A stretch of 64,000 nt of DNA from an uncultured Candidatus Saccharibacteria bacterium (GCA_964491925.1 CAZBGZ010000004.1:23529-87528), one strand, 5' to 3'; shown: positions 915 to 62,286, counted from the first letter of the stretch. Notes: a model not told the origin generated them from the letters alone. Numbers and translations: made by a program.

Positions 915-2138
915 CTATTTTTCTATAATAGCAAAGTTATTTTTTCCACGTTTAACTAAATTTTTGCCTTTTTTGAAATCATTCCAAGAACTATCTATCT
1001 TTGCTCCGTTAATCGATATGCTACGTGCCTCAATTAATCGTTTAGCTTCGCTATTTGATTCAGCTAGACCCGCGTTTACTAGAGACTGGACAAGGTTGCC
1101 TTTATACGAAGTAGTCGGCAATTCTTGTGCAAGTTTTGACTTTTCTGATTCTGATAGTTCTAGAAAATCAGCCTTGCCGAAGAGTACCTCAGTTGTGCGT
1201 ACGACACTATCAACTTCGTCTATGCCGTGCACTAGTTTTGTTACTTCGTATGCTAGCTTCTTTTGAGCTATACGAGTCGCTTTGTCCTCATTGAATTCTT
1301 TAATTATTTGATCGATTTCTGGCTTGGACAGCTCTGTGAACACCTTCAGGTATCCTTCAACACCCTCGTCGTCTACGTTTAACCAGAATTGGTAAAACTT
1401 ATAAACGCTTGTTTTGGACGAGTTCAGCCACACTGCACCATCTTCTGACTTTCCGAATTTCTTACCAGTCGCTTTATTGATAATAAGCGGCAAAGTAATA
1501 ACATGTACCTCTTTCCCACGTGCTCGACGAATAAGATCGACTCCACTTAAACAATTGCCCCATTGGTCTGACCCTCCTAGTTGCAAAGTCACGCCATAAT
1601 TATCATAAAGATGCAGGTAATCAAGCCCCTGTAATATTGTGTAGCTAAACTCGGCGTAACTAATTCCAGCCCCTTCTTCCCCGATTCTTTTTGCAATATA
1701 GTCACGCTGCACAAGGGGGGTCATACTGAAGTGCTTACCGATGTCTCTGAGGAATTCAATCACTGTCAACTTCTTCGTCCAGTCGAGGTTATTGACTAGT
1801 TCAAATTTTTCTCCGCGAAAAACCCGCTTTATTTCCTCGGTCGCGTTGGCTACGTTGAGAGCAATTGTTTCCTCATCTTGTAAGGTTCTCTCTTTGTCTT
1901 TGCCGCCGGGGTCGCCTATTAGACTGGTTGAACCTCCAGCAAGTAAAATTGCTTTATAGCCATGGCGAATGAAAATCTTGTCAAACATCATAGCAGCCAA
2001 GTTGCCGATTGTCTGCGAGTCTGCAGAAGCATCGAAGCCATGATAGAAAGTTCTTTTCTTTTTATCTAAATCGCTTAAATCATTAAACGTTGTTTGATTA
2101 ATAAATCCGCGCCACTGTAATTCTTCTGATAGTGTCAT
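915..2138 (-). CDS. tyrS: tyrosyl-tRNA synthetase
   Basis: 407 aa. YHGFDASADSQTIGNL (degenerate HIGH region), KFGKS (KMSKS), C-terminal S4-like domain (RLIEARSISINGAKI). Confidence 0.93.
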   Translation of the reverse strand: MTLSEELQWRGFINQTTFNDLSDLDKKKRTFYHGFDASADSQTIGNLAAMMFDKIFIRHGYKAILLAGGSTSLIGDPGGKDKERTLQDEETIALNVANATEEIKRVFRGEKFELVNNLDWTKKLTVIEFLRDIGKHFSMTPLVQRDYIAKRIGEEGAGISYAEFSYTILQGLDYLHLYDNYGVTLQLGGSDQWGNCLSGVDLIRRARGKEVHVITLPLIINKATGKKFGKSEDGAVWLNSSKTSVYKFYQFWLNVDDEGVEGYLKVFTELSKPEIDQIIKEFNEDKATRIAQKKLAYEVTKLVHGIDEVDSVVRTTEVLFGKADFLELSESEKSKLAQELPTTSYKGNLVQSLVNAGLAESNSEAKRLIEARSISINGAKIDSSWNDFKKGKNLVKRGKNNFAIIEK

Positions 2139-2338
2139 AGTTATAATAATTATACCCTAGTGATCACTGTACCAAAAATTAGACAAAAACAACCGTTTAC
2201 CTGCCCTACATCGGCCCCAGCACACTGACGAAATTATGCGTAATTAGTTTCTTTTCGCTTATGGAAAAAATAATGGCAAGTCTGCTGTTGTATTTGCTAT
2301 AATATAACCTACATCTTAATGGAGACAGTAATACTTAT

Positions 2339-5332
2339 ATGAGCAACCCTAGGCGTGGTTCACGCGTTACAAAAAATTCTTTCACAACCAAGAGTGGCTC
2401 TGTGGTCAAACTAAACCGAAGCCTAGGCGACAGAATGAAAATCCGCGGCGACCAAAAAGCTAGACGTAAAGCCGAACGCTTAAACGGTATGCCAAAAGGG
2501 CGTACACAACGCTTCTTTTATCGCCTAAATCCTAAGCGCATGTACCACTACTGGTTTAGCCGCGAAGGCGGAATAATGGCCCTAAAAATTATGGGCATAT
2601 GTTTCATTGCAGGATTTTTGTTTTTTGTTGGATTATTCGCATTTTTCCGAAAAGATTTACCTAACCTTCGTGATATCAGTGGCAATAATATCGGTGGTAG
2701 TATCAGATACTACGACAGAACTGGAAAAACCTTGTTATGGGAAGACTATGACGCAGTCAAGAGGATCCCGGTACAAGATAAAGAGATCACTCAGGACATG
2801 CGTGACGCAACAGTTGCTATTGAAGATAAAGACTTTTATAAACATGGTGGATTTGACCCGAAAGGCATCACAAGAGCAACTTGGAATAATGCTTTCGGCG
2901 GCAGTACACAGGGCGGGTCTACAATCACACAGCAACTAGTAAAGTTAACCCAAAACTGGACCCAGGAAAGAACCATTAGCAGAAAAGTTAAAGAACTAAT
3001 TTTAGCCGTAGAACTAGAACGAAGTTACTCTAAAGATGAAATTTTGACTGGCTATTTGAACACGGCGCCGTATGGTGGTATCGAATATGGCGTAGAGGCA
3101 GCCTCTCGAGATTACTTTAATAAATCTGCAAAAAAACTAACCCTCGCCGAGGCGTCGATGTTGGCCGCAATTCCAAAATCACCAACGTTGCTATCACCTT
3201 ATAGTCCTAGCTTTAATAAACAAGCATTTCTTGGAAGACAGCACTACATCCTGGATCAGATGCAACACCAAGGAATGATCACAGAAAAAGAACGTGATGC
3301 TGCTAAAAAAGTTGATGTAGTCAAGAGCGTGAAGCCTAGACAGGCTAAATATAGCGGCATAAAAGCTCCTTGGTTTGTGATTACGGCCAAAGAACAATTA
3401 GAGAATCAGTTCGGTGCAAAAGTAGTTGCCAGAGGCGGTTGGCGAGTCACGACTACCTTAGACATAAAATTACAAGAGGAAGCAGAAAAACAGGTCAAAG
3501 CCGGTATCAACCAAGTTTATGCGCAGGGTGGTGACACCGCCGCCTTTGCTGCCGAAGACGTACCCACGGGTCAAATGGTGGCCTTGGTTGGTGGTGTAGA
3601 TTTCGGGAACAAAGAGTTTGGGCAGAATAATTACGCCAGATACAAGCTGCCTCCTGGGTCTAGCTTTAAACCCTATGATTATGTGTCACTGATTAACAGC
3701 AAAAATAATTTTGGCGCAGGTTCGGTCCTATACGACTCTCAGGGCCCACTAGAAGGCTACCCATGTACCCAGAAAGGCTTGCCACCACCAAGAGGCAATG
3801 GTAACTGTCTACAAGACTATGACTTTAGATATCCGGGAGCTATGACCGTTCGTTATGCCCTAGGAGGCTCTAGAAACGTACCTGCCATGAAAGCAATGCT
3901 TTTAACTGGCGTGGATAAGACAATAGAAACAGCTGAACGGCTCGGGCTAAAAAGTGGCTATAATTGTTATCAAGACGACGCATTAACAAAAGAAGGGCCT
4001 TGTTATGCTTCTTCATCTATTGGTGATGGTGCATATTTAAAACTAGACGAGCACGTACATGCTCAAAGTTCACTATCAAGAAATGGTTTGAACATACCCC
4101 AAACCTACATCTTAAAAATAGATGACTCCAATGATAAACCAGTCTATCAATGGAAAAAAGAAAAAGGCGACCAGGCAGTTCGTCCAGATGCTGCGTATAT
4201 TATCAATAATATTTTGTCTGATCCCAACGCCAGCTACTTCCCTGCAGGACGAAAGCCTCAAAGATTTGGTGACTGGAAGTTCGCCATGAAAACCGGAACG
4301 ACAAACGACGGCAAAGACGGTTGGATGACAGGATATTCAACAAAATACGCTGCCAGTGTCTGGGTCGGATACCACAACCGTAGGGTCCAAATGAGTGGCA
4401 CGATGGAAAACATGACTCAGCCCATTTGGCAGGGCTGGATGCAATCAGCACACACCGGCAAACCAGCCAAAGACTGGGTAAAGCCTAGTGGAGTTAAAAC
4501 AGCACCTGCTTACGTAATTAGAACTCATGTGGGTATCGGTTCCGTAGAGCCTAGCCCAAGCACCGATCTATACCCATCTTGGTACACGAACACTAAGAAA
4601 AAATCCACATCTAAGAAGACGATTGACAAAGTATCTAACAAACTCGCTACTAGTTGTACGCCACAAAGAGCCAGAAAAACACTCAGCGAAACTGATGCCT
4701 CTAGTTTCTCGGGAGACACATTCGTTGATGCCGGCGGCAATAACTCCAATCAGCAAGATGACGTACATAAATGTAGTGACAAAAAACCGAGTATTAGTTT
4801 GTCTGTTCAAAAATCGGGTAGTTCCTACAATTTGGTTGCAACAGTCAGCCAAGGAACTCACCCACTTTCTAGCACTAAATTCAAAGGAACGGTAACATTT
4901 GTTGTTGACGGAAAAGAAATCGCAGGCGGATCGTATAACATTAACAGTCCAGGCACCGTAACTTACAAGAACTACAAGCCTAACTTCTCGGGAACAAAAA
5001 CAGCAACAGCTACGATCGTAGATAGCGTTCTGTACGATGATAGCGACTCTAAAAGTATTACAGGGTCTGGTTCATCATCTAGCGCCTCATCCATTAGCAA
5101 CTTCCGAACAACCAACGAAAGCTCAAACACGATCACCCTAGCATGGAATGCTTACTCTGGCGCAACCGGATATACTTTAACAATAGTATCAGGTGGCAGT
5201 GGGTCATGTACTTCTTCGGGCACGAATGGGGTATGTACCGGTCTAACTAGTAGCACAAACTACAGCTTCAAAGTTAAAGCCAACGGTGTTAGCGGCAATC
5301 CATCGGCAACCACCTCAGGCACAACGGACTAG
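2339..5332 (+). CDS. class A penicillin-binding protein (GT51 glycosyltransferase + transpeptidase) with C-terminal Ig/FN3-like repeats
   Basis: 997 aa. GT51 motifs EDKDFYKHGGFD and GGSTITQQL. Transpeptidase SSFKP (SxxK), SRN, KTGTT. TM helix after an ~80-aa basic tail. FN3-like end (ITLAWNAYSGATGYTL...YSFKVKA). Confidence 0.92.
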   Translation: MSNPRRGSRVTKNSFTTKSGSVVKLNRSLGDRMKIRGDQKARRKAERLNGMPKGRTQRFFYRLNPKRMYHYWFSREGGIMALKIMGICFIAGFLFFVGLFAFFRKDLPNLRDISGNNIGGSIRYYDRTGKTLLWEDYDAVKRIPVQDKEITQDMRDATVAIEDKDFYKHGGFDPKGITRATWNNAFGGSTQGGSTITQQLVKLTQNWTQERTISRKVKELILAVELERSYSKDEILTGYLNTAPYGGIEYGVEAASRDYFNKSAKKLTLAEASMLAAIPKSPTLLSPYSPSFNKQAFLGRQHYILDQMQHQGMITEKERDAAKKVDVVKSVKPRQAKYSGIKAPWFVITAKEQLENQFGAKVVARGGWRVTTTLDIKLQEEAEKQVKAGINQVYAQGGDTAAFAAEDVPTGQMVALVGGVDFGNKEFGQNNYARYKLPPGSSFKPYDYVSLINSKNNFGAGSVLYDSQGPLEGYPCTQKGLPPPRGNGNCLQDYDFRYPGAMTVRYALGGSRNVPAMKAMLLTGVDKTIETAERLGLKSGYNCYQDDALTKEGPCYASSSIGDGAYLKLDEHVHAQSSLSRNGLNIPQTYILKIDDSNDKPVYQWKKEKGDQAVRPDAAYIINNILSDPNASYFPAGRKPQRFGDWKFAMKTGTTNDGKDGWMTGYSTKYAASVWVGYHNRRVQMSGTMENMTQPIWQGWMQSAHTGKPAKDWVKPSGVKTAPAYVIRTHVGIGSVEPSPSTDLYPSWYTNTKKKSTSKKTIDKVSNKLATSCTPQRARKTLSETDASSFSGDTFVDAGGNNSNQQDDVHKCSDKKPSISLSVQKSGSSYNLVATVSQGTHPLSSTKFKGTVTFVVDGKEIAGGSYNINSPGTVTYKNYKPNFSGTKTATATIVDSVLYDDSDSKSITGSGSSSSASSISNFRTTNESSNTITLAWNAYSGATGYTLTIVSGGSGSCTSSGTNGVCTGLTSSTNYSFKVKANGVSGNPSATTSGTTD

Positions 5333-5348
5333 CAAATTAATATGATTC

Positions 5349-6692
5349 TCAAGTCTCCAAAAACGTATTAAGAGCCGTTCGAATGTCTTTTGCTGGAAAC
5401 AGTAGCTTTTCTTTCTTTTTAGAATCTCGTGGCCTAGGGCCTATAACAACTTCGAACCCCATCTTCTTTGCCTCTGTAATCCGTTTTTCTATGTAGGGTG
5501 CATGCCTAATTTCGCCAGATAATCCGACCTCACCAAAGACTACAGCGTTTTGTTTTAATTTTAATCCCTTGCTAGCCGACCCTATAGCCATACAAATAGC
5601 TAGGTCTGCCGCCGGTTCGGTGACACGAATGCCACCGACAATGTTTATGTATATATCTTTGTCCGAGAGATTTAGCTTTGTTCGTCGTTCTAACATTGCG
5701 ATTAATAGATTCAAACGGTTAATATCAATGCCGCTTGCCGTCCGTTTAGGGTACCCGTAGCTTGTTTTATTGACCAAGGCCTGTACCTCTACCAAAATCG
5801 GTCTACTGCCCTCCATAGTAGCCAGCACGACCGAACCATCAGTCACTTGTCTCTCTGCCAATAATGCCTTTGATGGATTGTCTACTATCTTTAGTCCCTC
5901 GTCGGCCATCTCTAAGATTGCTACTTCATTAGTTGATCCGAAACGATTCTTGACCCCCCGCAAAATTTTAAACCCGCCATAACGGTCTCCTTCTAGCTGT
6001 AAAACGACATCTACGATATGTTCCAGAAGCTTAGGGCCAGCAATTGATCCTTCTTTCGTCACATGCCCGACTAAAATCAGTGCGGTGTTGGACTCTTTGG
6101 CTGCTTGCATTAGCATTGTTGTACAGCTAGTTATTTGGCTGACCGAGCCGGCAGAACTAGTTAACCTATCGGTAGCTATGGTCTGGATAGAATCGACGAC
6201 CACTGCATCATACTCATTGCCAGAAATACTGGCTTCAATGTCTTCAACTCTTGTGCTAGCAGCCAATTGCAGGTTGGTATTAGTCGAGCTGAGACGTTTG
6301 GCTCTTAAACCAATCTGATGAACGGATTCTTCGCCACTGATGTATAGAACTTTTTTAGTTTTAGCAACGGCATTTGCTAGTTGCAACAAAAGCGTGCTTT
6401 TCCCAATTCCAGGTTCTCCTGCCAATAACATTACGCTACCAGGGACTATTCCGCCACCGAGAACGGTATCAATATCGGTAATTTCACTGGGCATTCGTTT
6501 TTCATTACTTCTAGCGGCTTTGTCGCTGGTTATCGGACTCAGTTTTTTGCCAGTTGTGCCCGTCCTGACACTGGTTGACGTAATTACTTCTTCTAGAGTG
6601 TTCCACTCGCCACATGTTTGGCATTTTCCGCCCCAAGTAATAGACTCGGCGCCACAATTGCTACAAACATATTTTTTTTGACTTTTAGCCAT
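5349..6692 (-). CDS. radA: DNA repair protein RadA
   Basis: 447 aa. N-terminal Zn finger CSNCGAE...CQTCGEWNT, Walker A GEPGIGKST, KNRFG motif, Lon-like C-terminal domain. Confidence 0.95.
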   Translation of the reverse strand: MAKSQKKYVCSNCGAESITWGGKCQTCGEWNTLEEVITSTSVRTGTTGKKLSPITSDKAARSNEKRMPSEITDIDTVLGGGIVPGSVMLLAGEPGIGKSTLLLQLANAVAKTKKVLYISGEESVHQIGLRAKRLSSTNTNLQLAASTRVEDIEASISGNEYDAVVVDSIQTIATDRLTSSAGSVSQITSCTTMLMQAAKESNTALILVGHVTKEGSIAGPKLLEHIVDVVLQLEGDRYGGFKILRGVKNRFGSTNEVAILEMADEGLKIVDNPSKALLAERQVTDGSVVLATMEGSRPILVEVQALVNKTSYGYPKRTASGIDINRLNLLIAMLERRTKLNLSDKDIYINIVGGIRVTEPAADLAICMAIGSASKGLKLKQNAVVFGEVGLSGEIRHAPYIEKRITEAKKMGFEVVIGPRPRDSKKKEKLLFPAKDIRTALNTFLET

Positions 6693-52681: not shown

Positions 52682-52839
52682 TTATTCTCCCTTTATTGTA
52701 AAAGTTAGTATAGCTTATACATGGCTGATTCAGAAACAATATAAGAGAGTGACACTATTGCTAAAAAAATAACAAGATACAGATGAGCTCACTAGTGTCG
52801 TGAGAATTTAGTAACCAGTAGAATCTATTTTGTTGAAGT

Positions 52840-52899
52840 CTATTCTGTTGGTGGATGCATAGCTACAGGAGGGACGCCTTCTACACACCTGGCAGCCAT
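52840..52899 (-). CDS. 19-codon upstream ORF with two Pro-Pro motifs in the FKBP leader
   Basis: MAARCVEGVPPVAMHPPTE. AGGAG (rc of 52906-52910) 6 nt before ATG 52899. About 27 nt downstream of a consensus promoter. Confidence 0.2.
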   Translation of the reverse strand: MAARCVEGVPPVAMHPPTE

Positions 52900-52932
52900 T
52901 GACATCTCCTATAAATAACAATTAATAACACT

Positions 52933-52960
52933 ATTATAACGTATAACTAGTAATTGTCAA
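52933..52960 (-). promoter_or_regulatory. consensus promoter TTGACA-16-TATAAT immediately after the ABC exporter stop
   Basis: rc of 52955-52960 = TTGACA, rc of 52933-52938 = TATAAT. About 245 nt upstream of the FKBP ATG. Confidence 0.55.
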
Positions 52961-52975
52961 TATATAAAGCTCAAA

Positions 52976-54745
52976 TTAGGCCTTTATTTCAAACTCTTGC
53001 AGCTTCTTCTTGCTGGAATCAGTTTTGCCTTGTTGCAGTTTTAGTAATTGGGCGTAAATACCGTCTGTTTTCGCTAGCTGTTCGGGCGAACCCACCTCGT
53101 CAACTTGGCCGTTAGCCAAAGTGATTATTTGGTCTACATGCTGAATTGTACTCAGTCTGTGAGCGATTATTAGTGTAGTACGACCCTTCATTAGCCTTCG
53201 TAGGGCCTCTTGCACCATTGCTTCGCTCTTACTATCCAAACTGCTGGTAGCTTCGTCCAGAATCAAAATGGGAGCATTTTTAAGAAGTGCTCTGGCGATG
53301 GCTATGCGTTGTTTTTGGCCACCGGATAGTTTTAACCCACGCTCGCCAATCTCTGCCTGATAGCCTTTGTCGAACTTTTTAATAAATTCATGGGCATTGG
53401 CTGCTTTTGCCGCCGCTATGATATCTGCTTCTTTAGCGTTGGGATTAGAATAAGCAATATTCTCGCTTATTGTTCCACTAAAAAGCGCTGGATCCTGGAA
53501 AACTACACCAATGTTATCGCGCAAGCTTTTTTGGGTCACACTGTTGATATCTTGTCCGTCTATCAGAATTGCACCTTTTTGAGGCTCGTATAGTCGCATC
53601 AACAAATTGGTTATTGTTGTCTTCCCCTCGCCGCTCTCCCCAACTAGGGCAACTTTTGAATCTGGTTTTAGATCAAGATTAATTCCTTTTATTACAAGGT
53701 GGTCACTGTATCCAAACTCTACATTCTCGAAGGTAATTCTGCCTTTTTTGACAGCCAGCTTTTTGGCACCTTCAACATCGGAAATTTCCGGTTCTAGGTT
53801 CATTATTTCAAAATAATCTTTGCTGTCGGCTATGGCTTTTTGGGTGTTTTCAACCAGGAAACTAATGGTAAATATTGGAATACGTATCTGCATAGCATAC
53901 AAAATCAAGGCTACTGCTTGTCCAGGGCTAAAATGGCCGTTAACTGCTTGGACGAAAATCAGCAGATAAACAGCGTAGAAGATCACGTTTAGGATCACGC
54001 GTCGCTGTATATCCCTTTTGTGCCACAATTTTGACTGAGATTTTGCTATATTAACGGTTTTGTCGTAATGACGACGGAAAAAATTGAGTTCGTGTTTTTC
54101 CTGAATGAAGCTTTTTACTACTTTTATTTGGCTTATGGATTCTGCAAAACGCCCCGTAGCGATATCGAGGTTTTTATTGATTTTTGCCTGATATTTCATC
54201 CACTTACCACTGGTCTTGACCGTCATGAGAATGTATATCGGGTAGAGAGCAAACAACAGCAGAGCTATGGGAACGCTGTAATAGGCAATTATTATAAGTG
54301 CAAAAACTGTACTAAAAACAAACTGTAAAAAGTTGTTGCTCCACATCTGCATAAAATTGCTGACTTGAGCAATGGAACGGTTGAGGCGGTTGATAATCTT
54401 TCCAGATAGCTCTGTATCAAAGTAGTTTTGGGGAAGACTCAGCAAATGTTGATAATAGCGCCGACTTAGTAACCTCTGAAGCTTTACCCCCATTCTGTCG
54501 CCAAAATACCCCCCGATGTTACTCAACAAAGTAGATGCTACATCTAGTAGGAAAATACCGGTTGCTAGCATTACGACATAACGAACATTGCCGGTAGTGC
54601 CAACCTTGATGGTGTCTATTGCTCGTCCGCTCAGCATTGGTATCAGCAAGCCGGTCAGAGCAACCAATATTGATATAAAACTAACGGTGATGTAATAGGG
54701 CCACAGCTGGCGGGTAAACTTTATGATTCGCCAGATGTGTTTCAT
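52976..54745 (-). CDS. ABC exporter, fused permease/ATPase (MsbA/ABCB type)
   Basis: 589 aa. Six TM helices, Walker A GESGEGKTT, signature LSGGQKQR, Walker B ILILDEATS. Confidence 0.92.
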   Translation of the reverse strand: MKHIWRIIKFTRQLWPYYITVSFISILVALTGLLIPMLSGRAIDTIKVGTTGNVRYVVMLATGIFLLDVASTLLSNIGGYFGDRMGVKLQRLLSRRYYQHLLSLPQNYFDTELSGKIINRLNRSIAQVSNFMQMWSNNFLQFVFSTVFALIIIAYYSVPIALLLFALYPIYILMTVKTSGKWMKYQAKINKNLDIATGRFAESISQIKVVKSFIQEKHELNFFRRHYDKTVNIAKSQSKLWHKRDIQRRVILNVIFYAVYLLIFVQAVNGHFSPGQAVALILYAMQIRIPIFTISFLVENTQKAIADSKDYFEIMNLEPEISDVEGAKKLAVKKGRITFENVEFGYSDHLVIKGINLDLKPDSKVALVGESGEGKTTITNLLMRLYEPQKGAILIDGQDINSVTQKSLRDNIGVVFQDPALFSGTISENIAYSNPNAKEADIIAAAKAANAHEFIKKFDKGYQAEIGERGLKLSGGQKQRIAIARALLKNAPILILDEATSSLDSKSEAMVQEALRRLMKGRTTLIIAHRLSTIQHVDQIITLANGQVDEVGSPEQLAKTDGIYAQLLKLQQGKTDSSKKKLQEFEIKA

Positions 54746-57246
54746 AGCCTAGTAGCTTTGACCTTCTCTTTGGCTATGGTGGCTATGGAATCTAGAAGTT
54801 TGTTGACCTCTTCAGTCACTAGAGTGCGGTCTGGGTGTGACAGGCTGATTCGAAAGCTAATATGTTTTGATGTTTTGTCTTTGCTAAAAATATCAATCGG
54901 CTGGAAAGTGCATGTATAACCATGTTCTTTTTCTGCCTTGCGTAGTTGGGCTTTCGCGCAGTTAGCTAAATCGGAATAGGGTGTATCACAAGTCACCTTA
55001 AAGCTAATATCCTGGTGAGTGCTAGGGTATTTTGATAGCGGTGTATATACACTTGTTTTCGTTTGCGCAGACTGTATTCCCTCTGTTCCAATTTCAAAAC
55101 CGGCGGTATTTGGTGGTAATTTTAGAGCTTTTCGCACACTAGCTTTGTATTCGCCTATAATGCCCAGGAATGTACCACTTTGTCCATCGATGACGTATGC
55201 CGAACGGGCAGAGTTAAAAGGCGCCGTAACTGGGTAATTCGGCTTATCGTCAACCGATTTATAGGCCAATTCTAGACCAAAACTTTTACCTAGATGTTCC
55301 AGTAGTTCTTTGACCTTGTAATATGGCGCTCCCTCGTTTTTCGACTTTGTATTCGATGAGTAGACGGCCGCAACCATCTCTAATTCTGTTGGCAGTTTGC
55401 TATCTTTTTCGAGATGTGTCTTGTTATGTGATTTGCCAATTTCGAACAATGCAAACTCGTCATATCCAGACTTTATATTCATGTGTACCTTGTCCAACAG
55501 ACTTGGTGTTAGGGTGAGTCGGTAATATTGCAGATCGGGGCTAAGGGCGTTACTGATTTGATAAGCTTGTTTTTTATCTTGACCCGTTTTATCGAATAAA
55601 TCCCCATGAACAAAGCTATAAGTTAGTACTTCGTTCGCGCCTGCTCGCGACAAAACGTCTCGGACTTTGCTTTTTATGACAAGCATTTTATCTTTTTGCG
55701 CTGGTGTTATGTCACGCTTCGGCAATGTCAGTGGCAAATGATCATATCCATACAATCGTCCTACTTCTTCGACTATATCTTCTGGTATCTCGAGATCGGT
55801 TCGCCAGAATGGCGGACTAGCTATTAAGTTTTTACCGTTTGTTGCTACTGAAATTTCGACGTTTTTCAACAAAGTAGCTATCTGTGTCGTTGATAGGTCT
55901 AGACCTAAACGTTCGTTTATAAAACCGCTGTTGGTGTGGATACCCTTCCAGAAACCTTGGGATTTGTGTGCCGCCGTATCAATAATGTCGCCTGCCAACT
56001 CTGCATTTGCTAATTTCTGAAGCATTCCAACAGCGTAGGTCGCAACAACATCATTTTGTAACGGCGATTGGCCTTTGTTGAACCTGGTAACAGCGTCCGT
56101 AAATAAACCGTGCGTCATACTAGTTTTTCGGATCGAATACATATCAAAGCTAGCACATTCCAAAATTATGTTTTTGGTTTCGCTATCGACTTCTGTATCT
56201 GTCCCCCCCATGACGCCACCGATTCCAATCAGTCTTTTTTCGGTTGCAATCATTATCGCTTTATCGTGAGGTTGAATTGTTTTGCCGTTGAGTAGCACGA
56301 TTTTTTCACCCTTTTTTGGCAATCTGGCTATTATTGTAGCTTTTGCAGAATTATCCTGCGCAGCTACTTTGTCATAATCGTAGGCGTGCGTTGGCTGGGC
56401 CGTCAGCAACATAATAAAGTTAGTTATATCTACTACGTTATTGATCGATTTTATGCCAAGTCTACTGAGATAAGACTGCATAATTATTGGTGATTTTGTG
56501 ACTTTTATGTCGGATAATGGCACGGCAAAGAAGCGCGGCACGAGCTCAGGAATTTGGTTTTTGACTGTTAATGACAGTTTTTTATCAGATTTACTGGCCT
56601 TTATTGGCAGGCTATGAAGATACCATTTTGGTGAAGTGAACTTTATGTTTTGAATACCGGCAATTTCCCGCGCAACACCTAATATACCGAAACAATCCGG
56701 ACGATGAGTGAACATCTTGTTCTCGATGTCAATAATATAGTCGTCTAATTCATAAAGCTCGGCGAATGATGCCCCAGGCTTGGCCGGCTTATCGACAATT
56801 AGTATGCCATCGTGGTCATCGCTAATCTGCAGTTCCTTCGCACTGCCCAGCATTCCATTGCTGTCTGCACCGCGCAGGGGCCGAACGTCCAGTTTGAACT
56901 GTTCCTTTTCAAAAGTACTAGGCACTATTGCGCCTGGTGGTATCCAGGCGACGCTAATACCAGCACGTACATTTTGTGCGCCGCAAACAACTTGGACTAA
57001 TCCTTTGCTGTCACGCTTCACACCCTTTGTGACACCACCATCATCGATTTTACAGACATGTAATTTGTCGGCGTTAGGATGCTTTTCGCAACTGACAACT
57101 TTAGCGACAACCACGCCTTCGTACCGCTCACCCAACGATATTACTTCTTCTACTTCGCCCAGTTGAGCCCCAATTTTCTTAACCAGTTCATCGACCGATA
57201 TCTGTATATCAGTAAACTCTCTTAACCAATTAAGCGATATCTTCAT
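54742..57246 (-). CDS. pheT: phenylalanyl-tRNA synthetase beta subunit
   Basis: 834 aa. tRNA-binding domain (HPNADKLHVCKIDDG), B3/4, B5 and FDX-ACB domains. Confidence 0.94.
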   Translation of the reverse strand: MKISLNWLREFTDIQISVDELVKKIGAQLGEVEEVISLGERYEGVVVAKVVSCEKHPNADKLHVCKIDDGGVTKGVKRDSKGLVQVVCGAQNVRAGISVAWIPPGAIVPSTFEKEQFKLDVRPLRGADSNGMLGSAKELQISDDHDGILIVDKPAKPGASFAELYELDDYIIDIENKMFTHRPDCFGILGVAREIAGIQNIKFTSPKWYLHSLPIKASKSDKKLSLTVKNQIPELVPRFFAVPLSDIKVTKSPIIMQSYLSRLGIKSINNVVDITNFIMLLTAQPTHAYDYDKVAAQDNSAKATIIARLPKKGEKIVLLNGKTIQPHDKAIMIATEKRLIGIGGVMGGTDTEVDSETKNIILECASFDMYSIRKTSMTHGLFTDAVTRFNKGQSPLQNDVVATYAVGMLQKLANAELAGDIIDTAAHKSQGFWKGIHTNSGFINERLGLDLSTTQIATLLKNVEISVATNGKNLIASPPFWRTDLEIPEDIVEEVGRLYGYDHLPLTLPKRDITPAQKDKMLVIKSKVRDVLSRAGANEVLTYSFVHGDLFDKTGQDKKQAYQISNALSPDLQYYRLTLTPSLLDKVHMNIKSGYDEFALFEIGKSHNKTHLEKDSKLPTELEMVAAVYSSNTKSKNEGAPYYKVKELLEHLGKSFGLELAYKSVDDKPNYPVTAPFNSARSAYVIDGQSGTFLGIIGEYKASVRKALKLPPNTAGFEIGTEGIQSAQTKTSVYTPLSKYPSTHQDISFKVTCDTPYSDLANCAKAQLRKAEKEHGYTCTFQPIDIFSKDKTSKHISFRISLSHPDRTLVTEEVNKLLDSIATIAKEKVKATRL

Positions 57247-57695
57247 AGCTTAACCTCACAACGAGTATCTATGTAGTACCCGTTTTTTTTGCCTTCACTG
57301 TTCAACCAAATACGTTCGGGGGTGGCTGTGAATATTCTGGTAGGGGCATCCCCTGTAGTGGTATCTTCGGTCAACTGAAAAAGTTTAGCGCGTTGGTTAT
57401 ATAGAGCAAGTGCGCTTTTTAGTTCTTCCCCCTCTTCTAATATTCTTGCTTTTGCTTCCATGTAAACGCCTGCGGCTTCTTTTTCGGATGCATTCGGGTT
57501 AAACATCGTAATAAACACTCTGTTGTCTCGGTCTAAATTCTGCGAATGCACACTTTCTGCATCCGTCCACCAATAGATATTACTATTATTATCAAACACA
57601 AAAAAAACTGGGCTTGCCCAAGGCGAACCGTCATTACACACCGTTGAAAGTGTGCAAAATATCGTTGAGTCTAGAATTTGCATTACTTTGTTCAT
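57243..57695 (-). CDS. pyridoxamine 5'-phosphate oxidase-like FMN-binding split-barrel protein
   Basis: 150 aa. CTLSTVCNDGSPWASPVFFVFD...IYWWTD pattern typical of the PNPOx-like family. Confidence 0.7.
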   Translation of the reverse strand: MNKVMQILDSTIFCTLSTVCNDGSPWASPVFFVFDNNSNIYWWTDAESVHSQNLDRDNRVFITMFNPNASEKEAAGVYMEAKARILEEGEELKSALALYNQRAKLFQLTEDTTTGDAPTRIFTATPERIWLNSEGKKNGYYIDTRCEVKL

Positions 57696-58258
57696 TTTTC
57701 TATCTCCTCTAGCAATTCGGGGAATTGCATTCGTCTGTCATCAAAGAAATGTCCATACTCATGAAACTGTTTATATTTCACGCCACGTATCTTTTCTTTC
57801 AGTATTTGTGCGCTCTTTTTCACACTTTCGCCATCATCATCCGAATTAAAAATTGTAACCCCGGCCGTTCGCTTAACTAAATCAGGGTCGATGGTAAATT
57901 CAAAAAAATCGCCAGTATCGAATTTCTTATCTGGATCGATCCAGGGCGCTACCAAAACGACCTTGCCCACTGAAATGTCTTTATGTTCACTTAGCCAGCG
58001 TGCTAAGAAACCGCCGCCACAACTATGGCCGACCAATATTGTCTCTGGGCTAATATCGTAACGTTCAAATTCTTTTTGCCATGTAGGGTAATCGGCTATC
58101 CAGCCATTGGGGACTTCTGGCGTTTGCGTCGGGATTTCGCGCACAACAAGTTGTTTCTGAAGCCACGGTAACCAGTAATAGTTACTGAACGAAGGAAAGT
58201 TAACATCATAAAAGTGGTCTTTGCTGGGTTTCCCGTGTAGGATTATTGCATTTTTCAT
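57692..58258 (-). CDS. YdeN/RBBP9-type serine hydrolase (alpha/beta fold)
   Basis: 188 aa. ILHG..., nucleophile elbow LVGHSCGG, late Asp and His (DDDGESV, EYGHF). Confidence 0.75.
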   Translation of the reverse strand: MKNAIILHGKPSKDHFYDVNFPSFSNYYWLPWLQKQLVVREIPTQTPEVPNGWIADYPTWQKEFERYDISPETILVGHSCGGGFLARWLSEHKDISVGKVVLVAPWIDPDKKFDTGDFFEFTIDPDLVKRTAGVTIFNSDDDGESVKKSAQILKEKIRGVKYKQFHEYGHFFDDRRMQFPELLEEIEK

Positions 58259-58866
58259 GTCTCTATCTCCGCAATTATTCTGGCAGGGGCTGCGTCTATC
58301 TGTAGATTTATTGGCAGGGCGAATACTTTGAATGTCTTGCCCACTAATTGTTCGAGATTTGTTAGGTTTTCGGCTATAAGGACGCCGCCTTCAAGTAAAA
58401 TTTTATGGACTGGAAAGCCGTCTTTATTGTCTGGACTACAAGCGTCTATACCTATCATTTTGATTTTTTTGGCTACAAGGTACTGGGCAACTTCCTCGCT
58501 CATGGCTGGATAGTCTTCAAAATAGGCGGATTCGTGATATTTTGCGCCCATACCGGTATAAAGCAGCACTATGTCGCCTTCCTGAATATCAGCATCTTTT
58601 AGCGTGTCGAAATTGCCATCTATTACGTCAACATAAACCCCGCGTCCAATAAATTGGTCGACCGGGATTTGGTCCAGAGCTTTGCCACCAGCAAGCATGT
58701 GCATAGGTGCATCGACGTGTGTGCCGACGTGCGTTCCAATCGAAAGATAATGGTCGCAATAGCCGTCTTTATCAAGAACACCGGCTGGTTTTATGATGGT
58801 TTTCGGATCACCAGGGTAAATTGGCGTATCTTCATTAATTAGTACCGATAGGTCAACGTATTTCAT
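58255..58866 (-). CDS. cyclase-family protein (kynurenine formamidase-like fold)
   Basis: 203 aa. IYPGDP..., SIGTHVGTHVDAPMH metal-binding motif. Confidence 0.8.
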   Translation of the reverse strand: MKYVDLSVLINEDTPIYPGDPKTIIKPAGVLDKDGYCDHYLSIGTHVGTHVDAPMHMLAGGKALDQIPVDQFIGRGVYVDVIDGNFDTLKDADIQEGDIVLLYTGMGAKYHESAYFEDYPAMSEEVAQYLVAKKIKMIGIDACSPDNKDGFPVHKILLEGGVLIAENLTNLEQLVGKTFKVFALPINLQIDAAPARIIAEIET

Positions 58867-59330
58867 GAGGATTGCCTCAATTTAACTTTTTCCTCTATAA
58901 AAGTTTCTACATCCGGGTAGACTTTGTCCATCATCAGATATAGCGTTTCGTACTTGTCGGGGCTCCCGATGCCGTAGCATTTTTTGCCCATGCCGTAGGC
59001 TGCCCCTAGCTCCATATGCGCAGACAAACCAGCAGGAAAAACTAAAATAAATTCTTTAGAATTTCTTTGGTTTCTCATATCAGTTTCAAAAATCTCTCTG
59101 AAAGTGGGGTTCGTTTCCCAATCTTCTAATGTCTCGAGCTTTTGCATAAAGCTTTCAACATCAGAACCTTCTGAGGTATCGATAACAAGCCCAGCCTTAT
59201 CTTCGTACTGATTCTCAATAAAACAGTAAACAGACTTCCCCGCATCCCGAAGCTTGTCGACTATAGTCCTAATGGCATCACGGTTTCGCCAGCGGCCAGC
59301 AACAAAATAATCGTATTTCCTAACGCTCAT
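58863..59330 (-). CDS. nucleoside 2-deoxyribosyltransferase-like Rossmann protein
   Basis: 155 aa. YDYFVAGRWRNRD N-terminal strand-loop, FPAGLSAHMELGAAYGMGKKCYGIG (conserved Glu region). Confidence 0.6.
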   Translation of the reverse strand: MSVRKYDYFVAGRWRNRDAIRTIVDKLRDAGKSVYCFIENQYEDKAGLVIDTSEGSDVESFMQKLETLEDWETNPTFREIFETDMRNQRNSKEFILVFPAGLSAHMELGAAYGMGKKCYGIGSPDKYETLYLMMDKVYPDVETFIEEKVKLRQSS

Positions 59331-60367
59331 GAGAATTGCCTCAAAAAGTCTAATTTACCAGATTCAAAGTGTCGGACGTCTTCGATATTGGATTTCATCA
59401 TAACTAACCGATCGATTCCGCCGCCCCAGGCAAAGCCGGTATATATATCAGGGTTAATGTCAGCCATTTTCAGCACGTTTGGGTGGATCATTCCACAGCC
59501 AAGCAGCTCAATCCAACCAGATTGCGAGCACACACTACAGCCTTTTTTCTTGCAAAATGGGCAACTAAGAGCAAACTCAAAACTAGGCTCTGTGAACGGA
59601 AAATAGAAAGGCTGTGTCTTTACCTCTATATCCTGATGGTAGTATTCCTGCAAAAAAGTCTTTAGTGTGGCTATTAGGTTGCCAGCGTTCATGCCTTTAT
59701 CTACAAAAATTCCTTCGTGTTGGTAAAAGGTATGCTCGTGCCGAGCGTCCAAGTCTTCATTACGAAACACTCTATCAGGGACCAAAACGGCAATTGGGCG
59801 GCCGTTTTCTAAATTTGATTTGTACTTTTTCAATAGTCTGTTTTGCATGGTACTAGTATGCGCCGGTGCGATTAATCCATCTGTGGTCATAAAAGTGTCA
59901 TAGTCGTCACGTGCTGGGTGTCCTTTAGGGAAATTTAGACTATCAAACATATGATAATCATCATCAAGCAGCCTGGACTGTTCTACATTGAAACCCATTC
60001 TATAGAAAATGTCAGAGATTTGTTCTATCTCAATCATAAGTGGGTGCTTGCTGCCGTTTTGCGCGGGCAGCAACGACGGTTTTTTAGCGTTAACATCGAA
60101 TGGTGCCGTAACATCAATGGGGTCAAGTTTTTCACTGTCATCTGACGCATCAGCGACCAACACTGTCAGTTCGGCTTTCAGCTGGTTTAATTCTTTGCCG
60201 AAACTAGCCCTTTCGTCAGGCTTTAACAGAGGTATTTCAGCCGCCAAAGCCTTCAGCTCAGGTGCGCGCAAAACAGAAGCTTTATTTTCAACCTTTTCTA
60301 GACGTCTTTGCAATGCCTCGGCCACATCCCCAATTTTCTTATGCTTATAGCTCATACTTATAGTCAT
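59327..60367 (-). CDS. pheS: phenylalanyl-tRNA synthetase alpha subunit
   Basis: 346 aa. Class II motifs (HPARDDYDTF, FRNEDLDARHEHTFYQHEG, GWAWGGGIDRL-like GFAWGGGIDRL). Confidence 0.94.
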   Translation of the reverse strand: MTISMSYKHKKIGDVAEALQRRLEKVENKASVLRAPELKALAAEIPLLKPDERASFGKELNQLKAELTVLVADASDDSEKLDPIDVTAPFDVNAKKPSLLPAQNGSKHPLMIEIEQISDIFYRMGFNVEQSRLLDDDYHMFDSLNFPKGHPARDDYDTFMTTDGLIAPAHTSTMQNRLLKKYKSNLENGRPIAVLVPDRVFRNEDLDARHEHTFYQHEGIFVDKGMNAGNLIATLKTFLQEYYHQDIEVKTQPFYFPFTEPSFEFALSCPFCKKKGCSVCSQSGWIELLGCGMIHPNVLKMADINPDIYTGFAWGGGIDRLVMMKSNIEDVRHFESGKLDFLRQFS

Positions 60368-60401: not shown

Positions 60402-61136
60402 TTAAGGACGGTCTTTCACTTCATACGATATTCGAATAGTGCCCGAGGATGTTTTTATTTTGCGAACTGTCTCTTGTCCGATGTCTTTTAGTTCTGCAAC
60501 GTGCGTTCCACCGCACGGCACCCCAAAGTCACCATATAAAACAACTCGGCTAGGCTTATCTTTTGGTAAATAGTCGGGAACATGACGACACAATTGTGCC
60601 ATTTCATCCCTGTCAACGAACTTTATTTCTGTTTTTATCCCCGACCCTAAGATTTCACTAATTTTTTGAGTTATCTTGGCCGATACTTCTTCCTTGGTTT
60701 CTTCTCCTAAATCACCGTCGTATTCAACATATGGCCCCCGTGGAAAATGAAATCCTTTGTCTGGTATCCAGGTGTAGCCGAGTTGGTTAACCGCCATATC
60801 AAGAACATGACCACCAGAATGCAAGCGAGTATGTAATTTTCGACGTTCACTGTCCACCTCACACTGCACATCTTCCCCTTGCATGAACTGATTGCCTTCA
60901 AAATGCCCAATATGATGCACTACGCCGTCAACAAATCGAACTTCTTCGACCACAAATTTTGCGGCGTCACTTGATATTACACCCGTGTCATACGGCTGGC
61001 CTCCACCCTGCGGGTAGAAAACTGTCTGATTCAAATATACTATTGTTTTTCCGTCTTTTTGCTCTACGCCTTCTACATATCCATCGCACTCTAGTTTCTG
61101 CATATTTTCCAGGTACAATAACTTAGTCGGTTCCAT
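60402..61136 (-). CDS. AlaX-type Ala-tRNA editing protein (Thr/Ala-tRNA synthetase second additional domain)
   Basis: 244 aa. HSGGHVLD and CGGTHV zinc motifs. AGGAG Shine-Dalgarno. Confidence 0.85.
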   Translation of the reverse strand: MEPTKLLYLENMQKLECDGYVEGVEQKDGKTIVYLNQTVFYPQGGGQPYDTGVISSDAAKFVVEEVRFVDGVVHHIGHFEGNQFMQGEDVQCEVDSERRKLHTRLHSGGHVLDMAVNQLGYTWIPDKGFHFPRGPYVEYDGDLGEETKEEVSAKITQKISEILGSGIKTEIKFVDRDEMAQLCRHVPDYLPKDKPSRVVLYGDFGVPCGGTHVAELKDIGQETVRKIKTSSGTIRISYEVKDRP

Positions 61137-61184
61137 GTTTGCTCCTAATTTAGTTTACTTATAGTTTAACGCACACCGTTTTTA

Positions 61185-61568
61185 CTAAAAGAACGGGCTC
61201 TTTTCTCTGAAAGGGTCGTATCTCTTAGCAACGCCGCCTGCCTTACTGGCGTCTGTATAAGTAGGCGCTTCTTCATCTCTGCCCATCATTCGAATAACAT
61301 GATATATCTGACCAAAAGGCCGAGTATCACCACGAGCAATCTCAATTAATGCGCGCCGTTCGTGGTCTTCATTCTGTAAAATACCGTTTTGTACCACACG
61401 ATCATAGTCGTCCGGCATTATTGCAAGTCCAGCTAAATGTCTAACAGCATCCCTTGGCGTTGGTGTATATCTGTCAAGCTCGGCAATATGCGCTTCATAA
61501 CTTGCCTGGACGTCCATGCTGCCTGTTTGCACATGTGCTGGCACATTTCCATAAGTTGTCATTGTCAC
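61185..61568 (-). CDS. hypothetical protein (orphan, ~127 aa)
   Basis: The ORF track starts at TTG 61586. GTG 61568 sits 6 nt after AAGGAG. No motif recognised. Confidence 0.5.
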   Translation of the reverse strand: MTMTTYGNVPAHVQTGSMDVQASYEAHIAELDRYTPTPRDAVRHLAGLAIMPDDYDRVVQNGILQNEDHERRALIEIARGDTRPFGQIYHVIRMMGRDEEAPTYTDASKAGGVAKRYDPFREKSPFF

Positions 61569-61607
61569 TTTAATCTCCTTTTTCAATAATTACGCAAGAA
61601 TTTAAAA

Positions 61608-61624
61608 ACCGCCCTAGTGGCGGT
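61608..61624. terminator. bidirectional-looking terminator hairpin
   Basis: ACCGCC-ctagt-GGCGGT, flanked by an A5 run on the left and TCTTTT on the right. Confidence 0.45.
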
Positions 61625-61753
61625 CTTTTCAATACTTTTCTATTTGTTTACAAACGCACAGAAGAAACCGCCACGATAGTGTCGGTAAAGAGAAATCCTT
61701 TATTTGCGATTATAGTATCCATAACTTTTCTACGATAACAGGTCTATTCATTT

Positions 61754-61781
61754 TTGGCAATAGCGTTTTATGGTCTATACT
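61754..61781 (+). promoter_or_regulatory. promoter TTGGCA-16-TATACT, 7 nt before yajQ ATG (leaderless-type)
   Basis: TTGGCA 61754-61759, TATACT 61776-61781, then ggaaagt and ATG 61789. No Shine-Dalgarno. Confidence 0.5.
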
Positions 61782-61788
61782 GGAAAGT

Positions 61789-62286
61789 ATGGCAAGCTTT
61801 TCTTTTGATGTAGTTAGTGAATTCGATAAGGCCGAGATGATTAATGTCTTTGACCAGACACAGCGAGAACTCTCAAACCGTTATGATTTTAAGGGGACTT
61901 CGGCTGCTGTCGAGTGGCTAAATAGTGATAAAACAGGGTTCAAGGTTATGGGTGATAGTCAGTATCAGCTAGATGCGATTGCAGACATTATTCGTAAAAA
62001 ACTGGCTGCGCGTAGCCAAAGCCAAAAGATTATTGATGTTTCAAAAGAACCCCTGACAACAAACCTGAAGATGCATTGGGAAGTTCCGTTTCAGAGTGGT
62101 TTGGACCAAGAAAAAGCCAAAAAAATAACAAAATTGATCCGTGATGAATTACCAAAAGTAAAAACTCAAATTCAAGGCGAAGAGGTACGTGTAACCAGCC
62201 AGAAAAAAGACGAACTACAAGCAGCCATGCAATTATTAAAATCACAAGATTTCGACTTTCCGCTATCCTTTACAAACTTCCGCTAA
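61789..62286 (+). CDS. yajQ: YajQ-family (UPF0234) nucleotide/c-di-GMP-binding protein
   Basis: 165 aa. MASFSFDVVSEFDKAEMINVFDQTQRELSNRYDFKG is the typical YajQ N-terminus. Confidence 0.9.
   Translation: MASFSFDVVSEFDKAEMINVFDQTQRELSNRYDFKGTSAAVEWLNSDKTGFKVMGDSQYQLDAIADIIRKKLAARSQSQKIIDVSKEPLTTNLKMHWEVPFQSGLDQEKAKKITKLIRDELPKVKTQIQGEEVRVTSQKKDELQAAMQLLKSQDFDFPLSFTNFR

Follow-up and report, generated by a model that had tools for sequence, protein, structure and literature searches.

Why are pheS and pheT, the genes for the alpha and beta subunits of phenylalanyl-tRNA synthetase (PheRS), separated by four small-enzyme genes in a member of Candidatus Saccharibacteria (Saccharimonadales, TM7)? 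The two genes are usually adjacent in bacteria. In the stretch of DNA analyzed here (64,000 nt, referred to below as the window), they lie on the minus strand, in the canonical order with pheS upstream of pheT, but they do not abut as in a pheST operon. A gap of 2,080 nt holding four unrelated open reading frames (ORFs) lies between them. An initial annotation of the locus had read these four genes, together with an exporter gene behind pheT, as a small-molecule processing-and-export route tied to PheRS expression. Comparison with related loci, all of them from metagenome-assembled genomes or metagenomic contigs, leads us to a different answer: the pheS|pheT junction is probably a clade-wide insertion hot spot with a rotating pool of small genes, and the enzymes found together in the window probably act independently, as one assortment specific to this lineage and not as a pathway.

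Seven minus-strand ORFs make up the locus, and ORF calling in the window returned each of them at exactly the coordinates that the initial annotation had given. In gene order these are pheS (59327..60367), a gene for a 155-aa protein resembling nucleoside 2′-deoxyribosyltransferases (NDT-like; 58863..59330), a 203-aa cyclase-family metal-dependent amidohydrolase of the arylformamidase/isatin-hydrolase kind (58255..58866), a 188-aa YdeN-type alpha/beta serine hydrolase (Ser-hydrolase; 57692..58258), a 150-aa PNPOx-like split-barrel protein (57243..57695), pheT (54742..57246), and a 589-aa MsbA-like ATP-binding cassette (ABC) exporter with fused transmembrane and nucleotide-binding domains (52976..54745). 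The 4-nt start/stop overlap claimed for every junction is present at all six, reading TCAT on the plus strand and ATGA in gene orientation. The Shine–Dalgarno (SD) sequence of each downstream start (GAGG/GGAG) sits within the last codons of the preceding gene. Overlaps of 4 nt occur at 8 of the 45 same-strand junctions in the window, and six of these eight belong to the chain from pheS to the ABC gene. The background rate is 2/39 elsewhere in the window and 77/573 (13%) across relatives. The run of ATGA overlaps is far beyond chance and beyond the genome background.

Internal promoters or terminators, which would break such a unit, were not found above shuffle level in consensus scans. An Rfam search in and around the unit gave no match even at E ≤ 1 and detected no T-box, leader, or riboswitch. 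At the sequence level, the chain has the features of a single unit, namely one strand, coupled starts, and no internal promoter or terminator signal. Of the earlier proposal of a single co-translated unit, the tight co-directional chain with its SD tails and ATGA coupling stands, and the single transcript is a prediction. The layout was found in identical form in two independent Logan assemblies (L057 and L058; loci are denoted here by L numbers) and in similar form in a close relative, L059. The arrangement is therefore not an assembly artefact. The GC content of the cassette is 0.43, the same as in the rest of the window, and composition gives no indication of a recent foreign origin.

The ancestral organization of the locus is illustrated by its relatives. 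A PheS scan yielded 56 loci at species level, almost all carrying the label Candidatus Saccharibacteria or Saccharimonadales, onto which the window proteins were mapped. In L002 (87% PheS identity) and L014, pheS and pheT overlap by ATGA and are followed by the same ABC exporter gene and then by an FKBP gene. The ABC gene comes directly after pheT, with no insert at all in the locus, in L002, L014, L015, L016, L022, L033, L034, L038, and L053, and it occupies this position in 12/24 relatives overall, insert-free ones included. Judging from gene order, the ancestral arrangement is pheS|pheT-ABC-FKBP, with the ABC exporter as an old neighbor of pheT, independent of any insert. Because the exporter stands behind pheT also where there is no insert, it belongs with pheT and not with the cassette. 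A specific linkage between exporter and enzymes was not found, and the proposal that the exporter is part of a processing-and-export cassette does not survive this comparison.

The gap between pheS and pheT is occupied in 21/44 loci under strict counting and in 26/51 under looser counting, which corresponds to about half of the related species. Accordingly, the premise of an adjacent pheST holds for about half of the relatives, which have the ATGA overlap of the two genes, and fails for the other half. The insertion noticed in the window is real and unusual, and it is one case of a split that recurs in the clade with varied contents. The inserts measure 0.27 to 5.1 kb, almost always lie on the same strand, and are usually coupled by ATGA or GTGA. 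One close relative, L001 (87% PheS identity), carries an insert of its own, consisting of a Ser-hydrolase and an unknown 181-aa protein. Clustering of 75 gap proteins from 35 loci gave 27 families, which occur in shifting combinations. Pfam gives names to HIT, NUDIX, MazG-like, cupin, two types of PNPOx, DUF5674 (which comes with a fixed partner), a 23S-rRNA-IVP four-helix protein, Ser-hydrolase, other alpha/beta hydrolases, methyltransferase, NYN, GDSL, and SDR; several families have no Pfam name. Many of these genes look like hydrolase, salvage, or "house-cleaning" genes. In the ±10 kb flanks, families of the gap pool are almost never found. Plasticity is not confined to the pheS–pheT junction, since the pheT–ABC junction is occupied in 12/24 loci; the FKBP–Grx junction is occupied in 0/28. 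No description of a split pheST, or of NDT-like enzymes in Saccharibacteria, was found in the literature that could be searched.

The independence of the four enzymes is apparent from their distribution. The proteins of L059, the closest relative, are mostly close to those of the window (PheT 87%, ABC 95%, and NDT-like 92% identity, PheS only about 80%), and the gene order there is AlaX-pheS-NDT-cyclase, two Ser-hydrolases, and pheT, with no PNPOx-like gene. Homologs of the cyclase at 60–72% identity occur in unrelated contexts: in L060 in the order RidA-cyclase-(178-aa ORF)-(456-aa ORF), where the neighbors were named by reading translations and not by family search, and in L062 as a solitary gene. 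PNPOx-like genes of relatives stand alone or with HIT or NUDIX. The partners of the NDT-like gene differ across seven further loci (L078–L086). In one case they are methyltransferase, ASCH, an unknown protein, Ser-hydrolase, hydrolase, and 2-hydroxyacid dehydrogenase; in others they are DUF5674 and its partner, HIT, a 108-aa protein, a 58-aa protein, or none. Each of the four genes is thus seen without the others, as would not be expected of a metabolic cluster, and the set is absent from L002, L014, and L001. The idea of a conserved four-enzyme set fails on the abutting pheST of L002 and L014, the other insert of L001, and the missing PNPOx of L059. The initial annotation had itself named close relatives with adjacent pheST and absent or scattered genes as evidence that would count against it, and L002, L014, and the scattered homologs are just that.

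A further feature of the gap concerns the ends of the genes. The last 17–18 nt of pheS are conserved across the clade and give an SD sequence and ATGA to whichever gene comes next. In the window, the pheS tail TTGAGGCAATTCTCATGA (59327..59344, minus strand), which contains the GAGG SD and ATGA and encodes LRQFS and the stop, recurs at the 3′ end of the NDT-like gene as TTGAGGCAATCCTCATGA (58863..58880, minus strand; LRQSS and stop). The two copies are 17/18 identical and form an 18-nt direct repeat with one mismatch that flanks the NDT-like gene. Inserted genes often close with such a copy, 16–19 nt long, of the tail of the gene before them, SD and ATGA included. Exact 16-nt tail repeats are found in L059 and L078, and a pheS-tail copy ends the PNPOx gene in L009 and the gene for the DUF5674 partner in L003, L023, L029, and L079. 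In L023, identical 19-nt repeats bracket the DUF5674 pair, and the copies at later junctions are increasingly degenerate. L029 has three pheS-tail copies, one of them behind a Cys-rich mini-ORF of 47 aa.

These tail duplications are real copies and not the product of chance or of family-typical endings. Only four of the 10,769 tail pairs compared within loci reach at least 12/14 identity, and all four pair the pheS tail with the tail of an insert. Outside pheS ends and gap interiors, the motif TGAGGCARTTYNNATGA was not seen in any of 83 loci. The NDT-like family usually ends in GVxV and stop; the altered ending RQ(F/S)S and stop is found in the window, in the L078 gene (P0002), and in the L059 ortholog, that is, only where another insert comes after. 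The lineage-specific last codon is usually shared by the two copies as well. In every case the identity of the copies sets in with the (T)GAGG of the SD, with unrelated sequence upstream; selection for the SD could also give identity starting at this point. A second repeat flanks the Ser-hydrolase gene of the window, with its left copy at the cyclase tail and junction (58245..58270, minus strand; GGAGATAGAGACATGA) and its right copy at the Ser-hydrolase tail and junction (57682..57707, minus strand; GGAGATAGAAAAATGA). It amounts to 81% identity over 26 nt in the window and 85% in L059. We have downgraded it to weaker evidence because part of each tail is inherent to the cyclase or Ser-hydrolase family. 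Tail copies were seen only for the pheS and cyclase tails, and none was seen at the plastic pheT–ABC junction. A tail hairpin sequestering the SD, considered as a cause of the conservation and copying, was not significant against shuffles (z = −0.5 and −1.7) and is not conserved in lineages with other last codons. The literature that could be searched gave no description of an SD/ATGA tail duplication that preserves coupling.

Several gap arrays of relatives are worth describing in their own right. DUF5674 (113 aa) and its fixed partner of about 104 aa, which has no Pfam family, form a gap pair in L003, L009, L023, L029, and L079. Their genes always overlap and are usually bracketed by pheS-tail copies (for example, L079 5356–6004), and the pair behaves like a small mobile unit. 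The 47-aa mini-ORF of L029 (8407–8549), with a zinc-ribbon-like pattern CxxC ... C ... C, has the DUF5674 pair on one side and the NDT-like gene on the other, and its stop is the TGA of the third pheS-tail copy. The largest coupled array apart from that of L023 is found in L078 (4970–12465), where seven genes stand between pheS and pheT: NDT-like, methyltransferase, ASCH/DUF3850, an unknown protein, Ser-hydrolase, alpha/beta hydrolase, and 2-hydroxyacid dehydrogenase. All its junctions are short stop/start overlaps, five of them of 4 nt (ATGA). Away from pheST, the L060 locus (1663–6461), which contains the 72%-identical cyclase homolog, is a chain of overlapping small-enzyme ORFs. By translation reading, without family search, these are RidA-like, cyclase, a YbaK/ProX-like deacylase, aldehyde dehydrogenase, a CMP/dCMP-type deaminase, and a peptidase E-like protein. 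Coupled "house-cleaning" enzyme arrays may be general in these genomes.

pheS itself is uneven in its affinities. The core of pheS in the window is nearer to L002 and L001 (75–85% nt identity) than to L059 (62–78%), and its last 150 nt are 97% identical to L002. In contrast, AlaX, NDT, pheT, ABC, and FKBP are much nearer to L059 than pheS is. Along the locus, the synonymous divergence (dS) between the window and L059 runs from 0.8 to saturation; it is saturated in pheS at 59466–60290, and the flanking AlaX and NDT-like genes have dS values of 0.8–0.95. On this sequence evidence, most of pheS has been replaced by a distant allele in the lineage of the window or of L059, and pheS is a recombination mosaic with tracts ending within it. 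The tract boundaries adjoin the gap, which is compatible with a homologous anchor there and does not prove it. Ratios of nonsynonymous to synonymous divergence (dN/dS, window versus L059) are 0.046 for the NDT-like gene and 0.085 for the cyclase gene, compared with 0.02–0.08 for core genes. These low values indicate that the inserts are functional and under purifying selection.

We propose that the four promoterless small-enzyme genes entered singly or in small groups at the stop/start junction that follows pheS. Each newcomer would be read from the operon transcript, with its ribosome-binding site in the last codons of the preceding gene and its start overlapping that gene's stop. Since the ribosome-binding site lies in the preceding tail and the start forms the ATGA overlap, translation would be handed along the chain and the essential pheT would still be made. 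New genes would arrive on DNA taken up by natural transformation. Homology within a conserved gene, either pheS or a gene already resident in the gap, would anchor one end of this DNA, and the other would be joined at the brief stretch of similarity (GAGG ... ATGA) that coupled junctions have in common. Such a join would leave one tail before and one behind the new gene, so that neither the newcomer nor pheT loses its ribosome-binding site. Any event that broke the coupling would kill the cell and hence never be seen. [quoted passage not shown] The pheST case resembles the latter in its possible homologous anchor (the pheS mosaic) and in the join at a short similarity (identity from GAGG). It differs in the repeated use of an SD/ATGA junction and in the tail duplication that preserves coupling, and it is known here from footprints only. 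We consider this specific route, gain by recombination of taken-up DNA at an SD/ATGA junction, quite possible, if still short of probable. A bolder suggestion, which we offer tentatively and with some doubt, is that the pheS junction acts as an integrase-free capture platform in which promoterless ORFs are inserted and the 16–19-nt tail with SD and ATGA is duplicated in the same event. This would give a cassette array fed from a shared pool, an analogue of an integron built on ribosome-binding-site junctions and natural transformation. Operon-embedded accessory genes and recombination hot spots are already known kinds of phenomena; the recurrent pheST split and the tail duplication appear to be new.

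How do other explanations compare with this picture? The four enzymes and the ABC exporter could form one processing-and-export route, for a nucleoside or aromatic-amine compound, co-expressed with PheRS. The tight, translationally coupled chain would suit such a route, as would the conservation of the NDT–cyclase pair in L059 under purifying selection and the closeness of a cyclase to hydrolases in L063. However, the ABC gene stands directly behind pheT in insert-free relatives, L002 and L014 lack all four genes, and L059 lacks PNPOx. Moreover, each family is found without the others in many genomes, the cyclase homologs of L060 and L062 have unrelated neighbors, and 27 unrelated families occur in the gap across relatives. 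With the exporter ancestral and the four genes independent, the pathway-plus-exporter proposal is rejected on comparative grounds as unsupported, and we hold it very unlikely. The gap residents could instead serve in quality control of aminoacylation or its by-products, the NDT-like protein above all and perhaps HIT, NUDIX, MazG-like, and AlaX, and be kept in place for stoichiometric co-expression with PheRS. Under this explanation it would be no accident that 11/11 independent loci seen have the NDT-like gene between pheS and pheT and that it was never found in the ±10 kb flanks of pheST, in a sample that includes seven further loci out of 389 homologs and favours long contigs. HIT occurs in the gap in 8 loci, and Hint proteins hydrolyse aminoacyl-adenylates. 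The gene for the trans-editing AlaX lies directly upstream of pheS, and selection on the NDT-like protein is strong. Yet about half of the related species have an empty gap, most species representatives have no NDT-like gene there, the residents are heterogeneous (methyltransferase, SDR, GDSL, NYN, cupin, four-helix IVP), and the pheT–ABC junction is equally plastic, with inserts in 12/24 loci. A functional tie of the residents to PheRS therefore seems unlikely to us. The fidelity of the NDT-like gene to the gap, shared by none of the other three enzyme genes, may reflect either history, the gene being locked in by translational coupling, or such a tie.

With regard to the route of insertion, true target duplication by a site-specific system is the main alternative to recombination. 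In an integron-like capture, the pheS tail would be the attachment site of a recombinase and would be duplicated at each capture, with the newest cassette beside pheS. The pheST arrays do share with integrons the promoterless, same-orientation ORFs at a fixed site behind the start of a transcription unit, the short repeats that flank the units, and contents shuffled between relatives from a shared pool. The 16–19-nt direct tail repeats, the L023 copies that become more degenerate with distance from pheS, the mostly concordant last codons, and the last gene before pheT, which lacks a pheS tail, are what such a system would leave. The boundaries, however, are coding-tail copies of 16–19 nt (SD and ATGA) with translational coupling inside an essential operon, and integron attC sites (imperfect palindromes of about 60–140 nt) or attC-like structured sites were not found at them; the tail hairpin is not significant either. 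We noticed no IntI, other integrase or recombinase, or transposase in the gene calls of the examined loci, the genomes not having been searched specifically for one. The identity starts exactly at the SD, in keeping with joins at microhomology or with selection for the ribosome-binding site. A tail other than that of pheS (the cyclase tail) shows the same phenomenon, the last codon is discordant in L079, and the pheT–ABC junction is plastic without tail copies. We therefore regard site-specific capture as distinctly improbable. Several points nevertheless weigh against the hot-spot reading and the recombination route that we prefer. The lineage-specific last codon is usually the same in the pheS tail and its copy (TCA/TCA, CGA/CGA, AAA/AAA; discordant in L079), and such sharing would follow more readily from a local duplication during insertion than from DNA imported from an arbitrary donor. 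The second repeat overlaps family-inherent endings (..AEI.. and ..PELLEE..), the recombination route is deduced from footprints only, and the single transcript across the chain is predicted from the sequence. Co-occurrence was judged within ±8–10 kb only. The presence of the NDT-like gene in the gap in all 11 loci could reflect a PheRS function rather than history. Finally, the NDT–cyclase pair has been kept under purifying selection between the window and L059, and in L063 a cyclase and a Ser-hydrolase gene lie close together outside pheST, with another alpha/beta hydrolase gene between them. In view of these two observations, a functional sub-module of two or three genes (for example, cyclase plus esterase) may exist within the set.

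The fold assignments of all four small enzymes in the initial annotation were borne out, by profile searches and, for the NDT-like protein, by a structure match. The latter protein scores 18.5 bits against PF15891, below the gathering cut-off of 30, and some members of its family reach PF05014 or PF15891 in precomputed hits. Its alignment-based AlphaFold (AF2) model has a pLDDT of 90.1 and a pTM of 0.85 and shows the flavodoxin-like alpha/beta fold of the NDT type. Foldseek gave 7o62, 9gn4, 1s2d, 6evs, and 1f8x as best matches (probability 1.00, TM ~0.6), with nucleoside 2′-deoxyribosyltransferases ranked first, followed by DNPH1, CMP N-glycosidases, YtoQ, and TIR domains. Glu107, in the motif HMELG, is invariant in 29 sequences and aligns with the motif Glu of HIEIG (4jen) and FELG (7o62), in the position of the catalytic Glu; Asp84 is also invariant in the family. 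The protein thus shares with the NDT/DNPH1/CMP N-glycosidase superfamily (PF05014, PF15891) the fold of 7o62, 1f8x, 1s2d, 4jen, and 8rpt, the invariant Glu in an ELG motif, and an upstream Asp. It differs in its sub-threshold Pfam score, in the Arg-rich N-terminal GRWRN in place of GPFF, and in the absence of Asp at the position of Asp92 of L. leichmannii NDT. The model and these residues point to a probable N-glycosidase or transferase with a nucleoside or nucleotide as substrate, and the Arg-rich GRWRN motif predicts that this substrate would be phosphorylated. The family appears specific to Saccharibacteria. A co-divergence test of its inheritance with PheS and PheT was uninformative because of saturation and mosaicism (PheS versus PheT pairwise divergence, rho = 0.20).

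The remaining proteins of the chain were assigned by profile searches, which also upheld the earlier identification of pheS, pheT, and the MsbA-type exporter. PheS matches PF01409 (E = 3e-73) and scores 235 bits against TIGR00468, just under the cut-off of 237.45. PheT matches TIGR00472 (E = 3e-175; 584.7 bits versus a cut-off of 402.65) and carries all five beta-subunit domains (B3/4, B5, core-like, tRNA_bind, and FDX-ACB), so that the alpha subunit with its class II core and the complete beta subunit are both present. The exporter is unambiguous, with ABC_membrane and ABC_tran domains. The cyclase matches PF04199 (E = 1.7e-31; 109.7 bits versus a cut-off of 23.1) and has the metal-binding His/Asp motif GTHVGTHVDAPMH (HxGTHxDxPxH). 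Its relatives in the PDB are 1r61 (E = 1e-27), 4cz1, and 4co9, including kynurenine formamidases. The Pfam match, the metal motif, and these structures place it in the kynurenine formamidase/isatin hydrolase/cyclase family. It scores only 88.8 bits against the equivalog TIGR03035, far under the cut-off of 223.05, and has no kynurenine-pathway genes nearby. The Ser-hydrolase passes the threshold of PF06821 (28.6 bits versus 22) and aligns with B. subtilis YdeN (PDB 1uxo), including the GxSxG elbow (GHSCGG) and the C-terminal His of the GHF motif (YGHF opposite GGHF). The PNPOx-like protein matches PF01243 (PNPOx_N; E = 1.8e-15, 57.8 bits versus a cut-off of 28.1) and stays under every NCBIfam subfamily cut-off.

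The flanks of the unit have a history of their own. An AlaX-type alanyl-tRNA editing protein (60402..61136, minus strand; PF01411/PF07973; NF040865 AlaXM at 112 bits, below cut-off) is encoded 34 nt upstream of pheS in the same direction. It is found in this position only in the window and L059; none of the 56 species representatives has it there. In most relatives, pheS comes right after a divergent YajQ gene, usually with a trehalase gene as well. In the window (60402–61586, minus strand, and 61789–62286, plus strand) and in L059, a gene for a 133-aa hypothetical protein and AlaX lie between YajQ and pheS. Because this interval is filled here and not in most relatives, genes have, judging from gene order, been gained on the upstream side of pheS too, and among them is a further quality-control factor for aminoacyl-tRNA. 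In the 200 nt preceding the 133-aa gene (61600–61790, minus strand) there is a promoter-like site with an extended TG (61760–61732) and, before the gene start, a strong GC hairpin with a T-run (ACCGCC-ACTA-GGGCGGT TTTTT, about 61630–61605). This region looks like a leader with a terminator or attenuator, and no Rfam family matched it. On the other side, just past the ABC stop, the consensus scan identified a perfect sigma-70 consensus, TTGACA-16-TATAAT (52933..52960, minus strand), which probably drives the next unit (FKBP) and gives the present one its downstream limit. The ABC–FKBP spacer (52682–52975, minus strand; 294 nt) contains a 19-codon mini-ORF with a good SD, MAARCVEGVPPVAMHPPTE and stop (about 52898–52839). 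This spacer measures ~500 nt in many relatives and may hide a small conserved element or gene.

Promoters and regulators are few in the ultra-small, host-dependent Patescibacteria, and yet gene content varies among them. The present data suggest a route by which such organisms could try new genes, namely the placement of a promoterless ORF in the stop/start junction of a constitutive essential operon, with a duplicated ribosome-binding tail by which nothing downstream is silenced. They also carry a warning, as tight operon packing is poor evidence for a pathway. If the capture model holds more widely, the NDT-like family, always found between pheS and pheT, would be a candidate worth testing, and such junctions would offer natural "landing pads" for engineering Saccharibacteria. 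A more general occurrence of this route would explain the gain and shuffling of small enzymes in reduced genomes.

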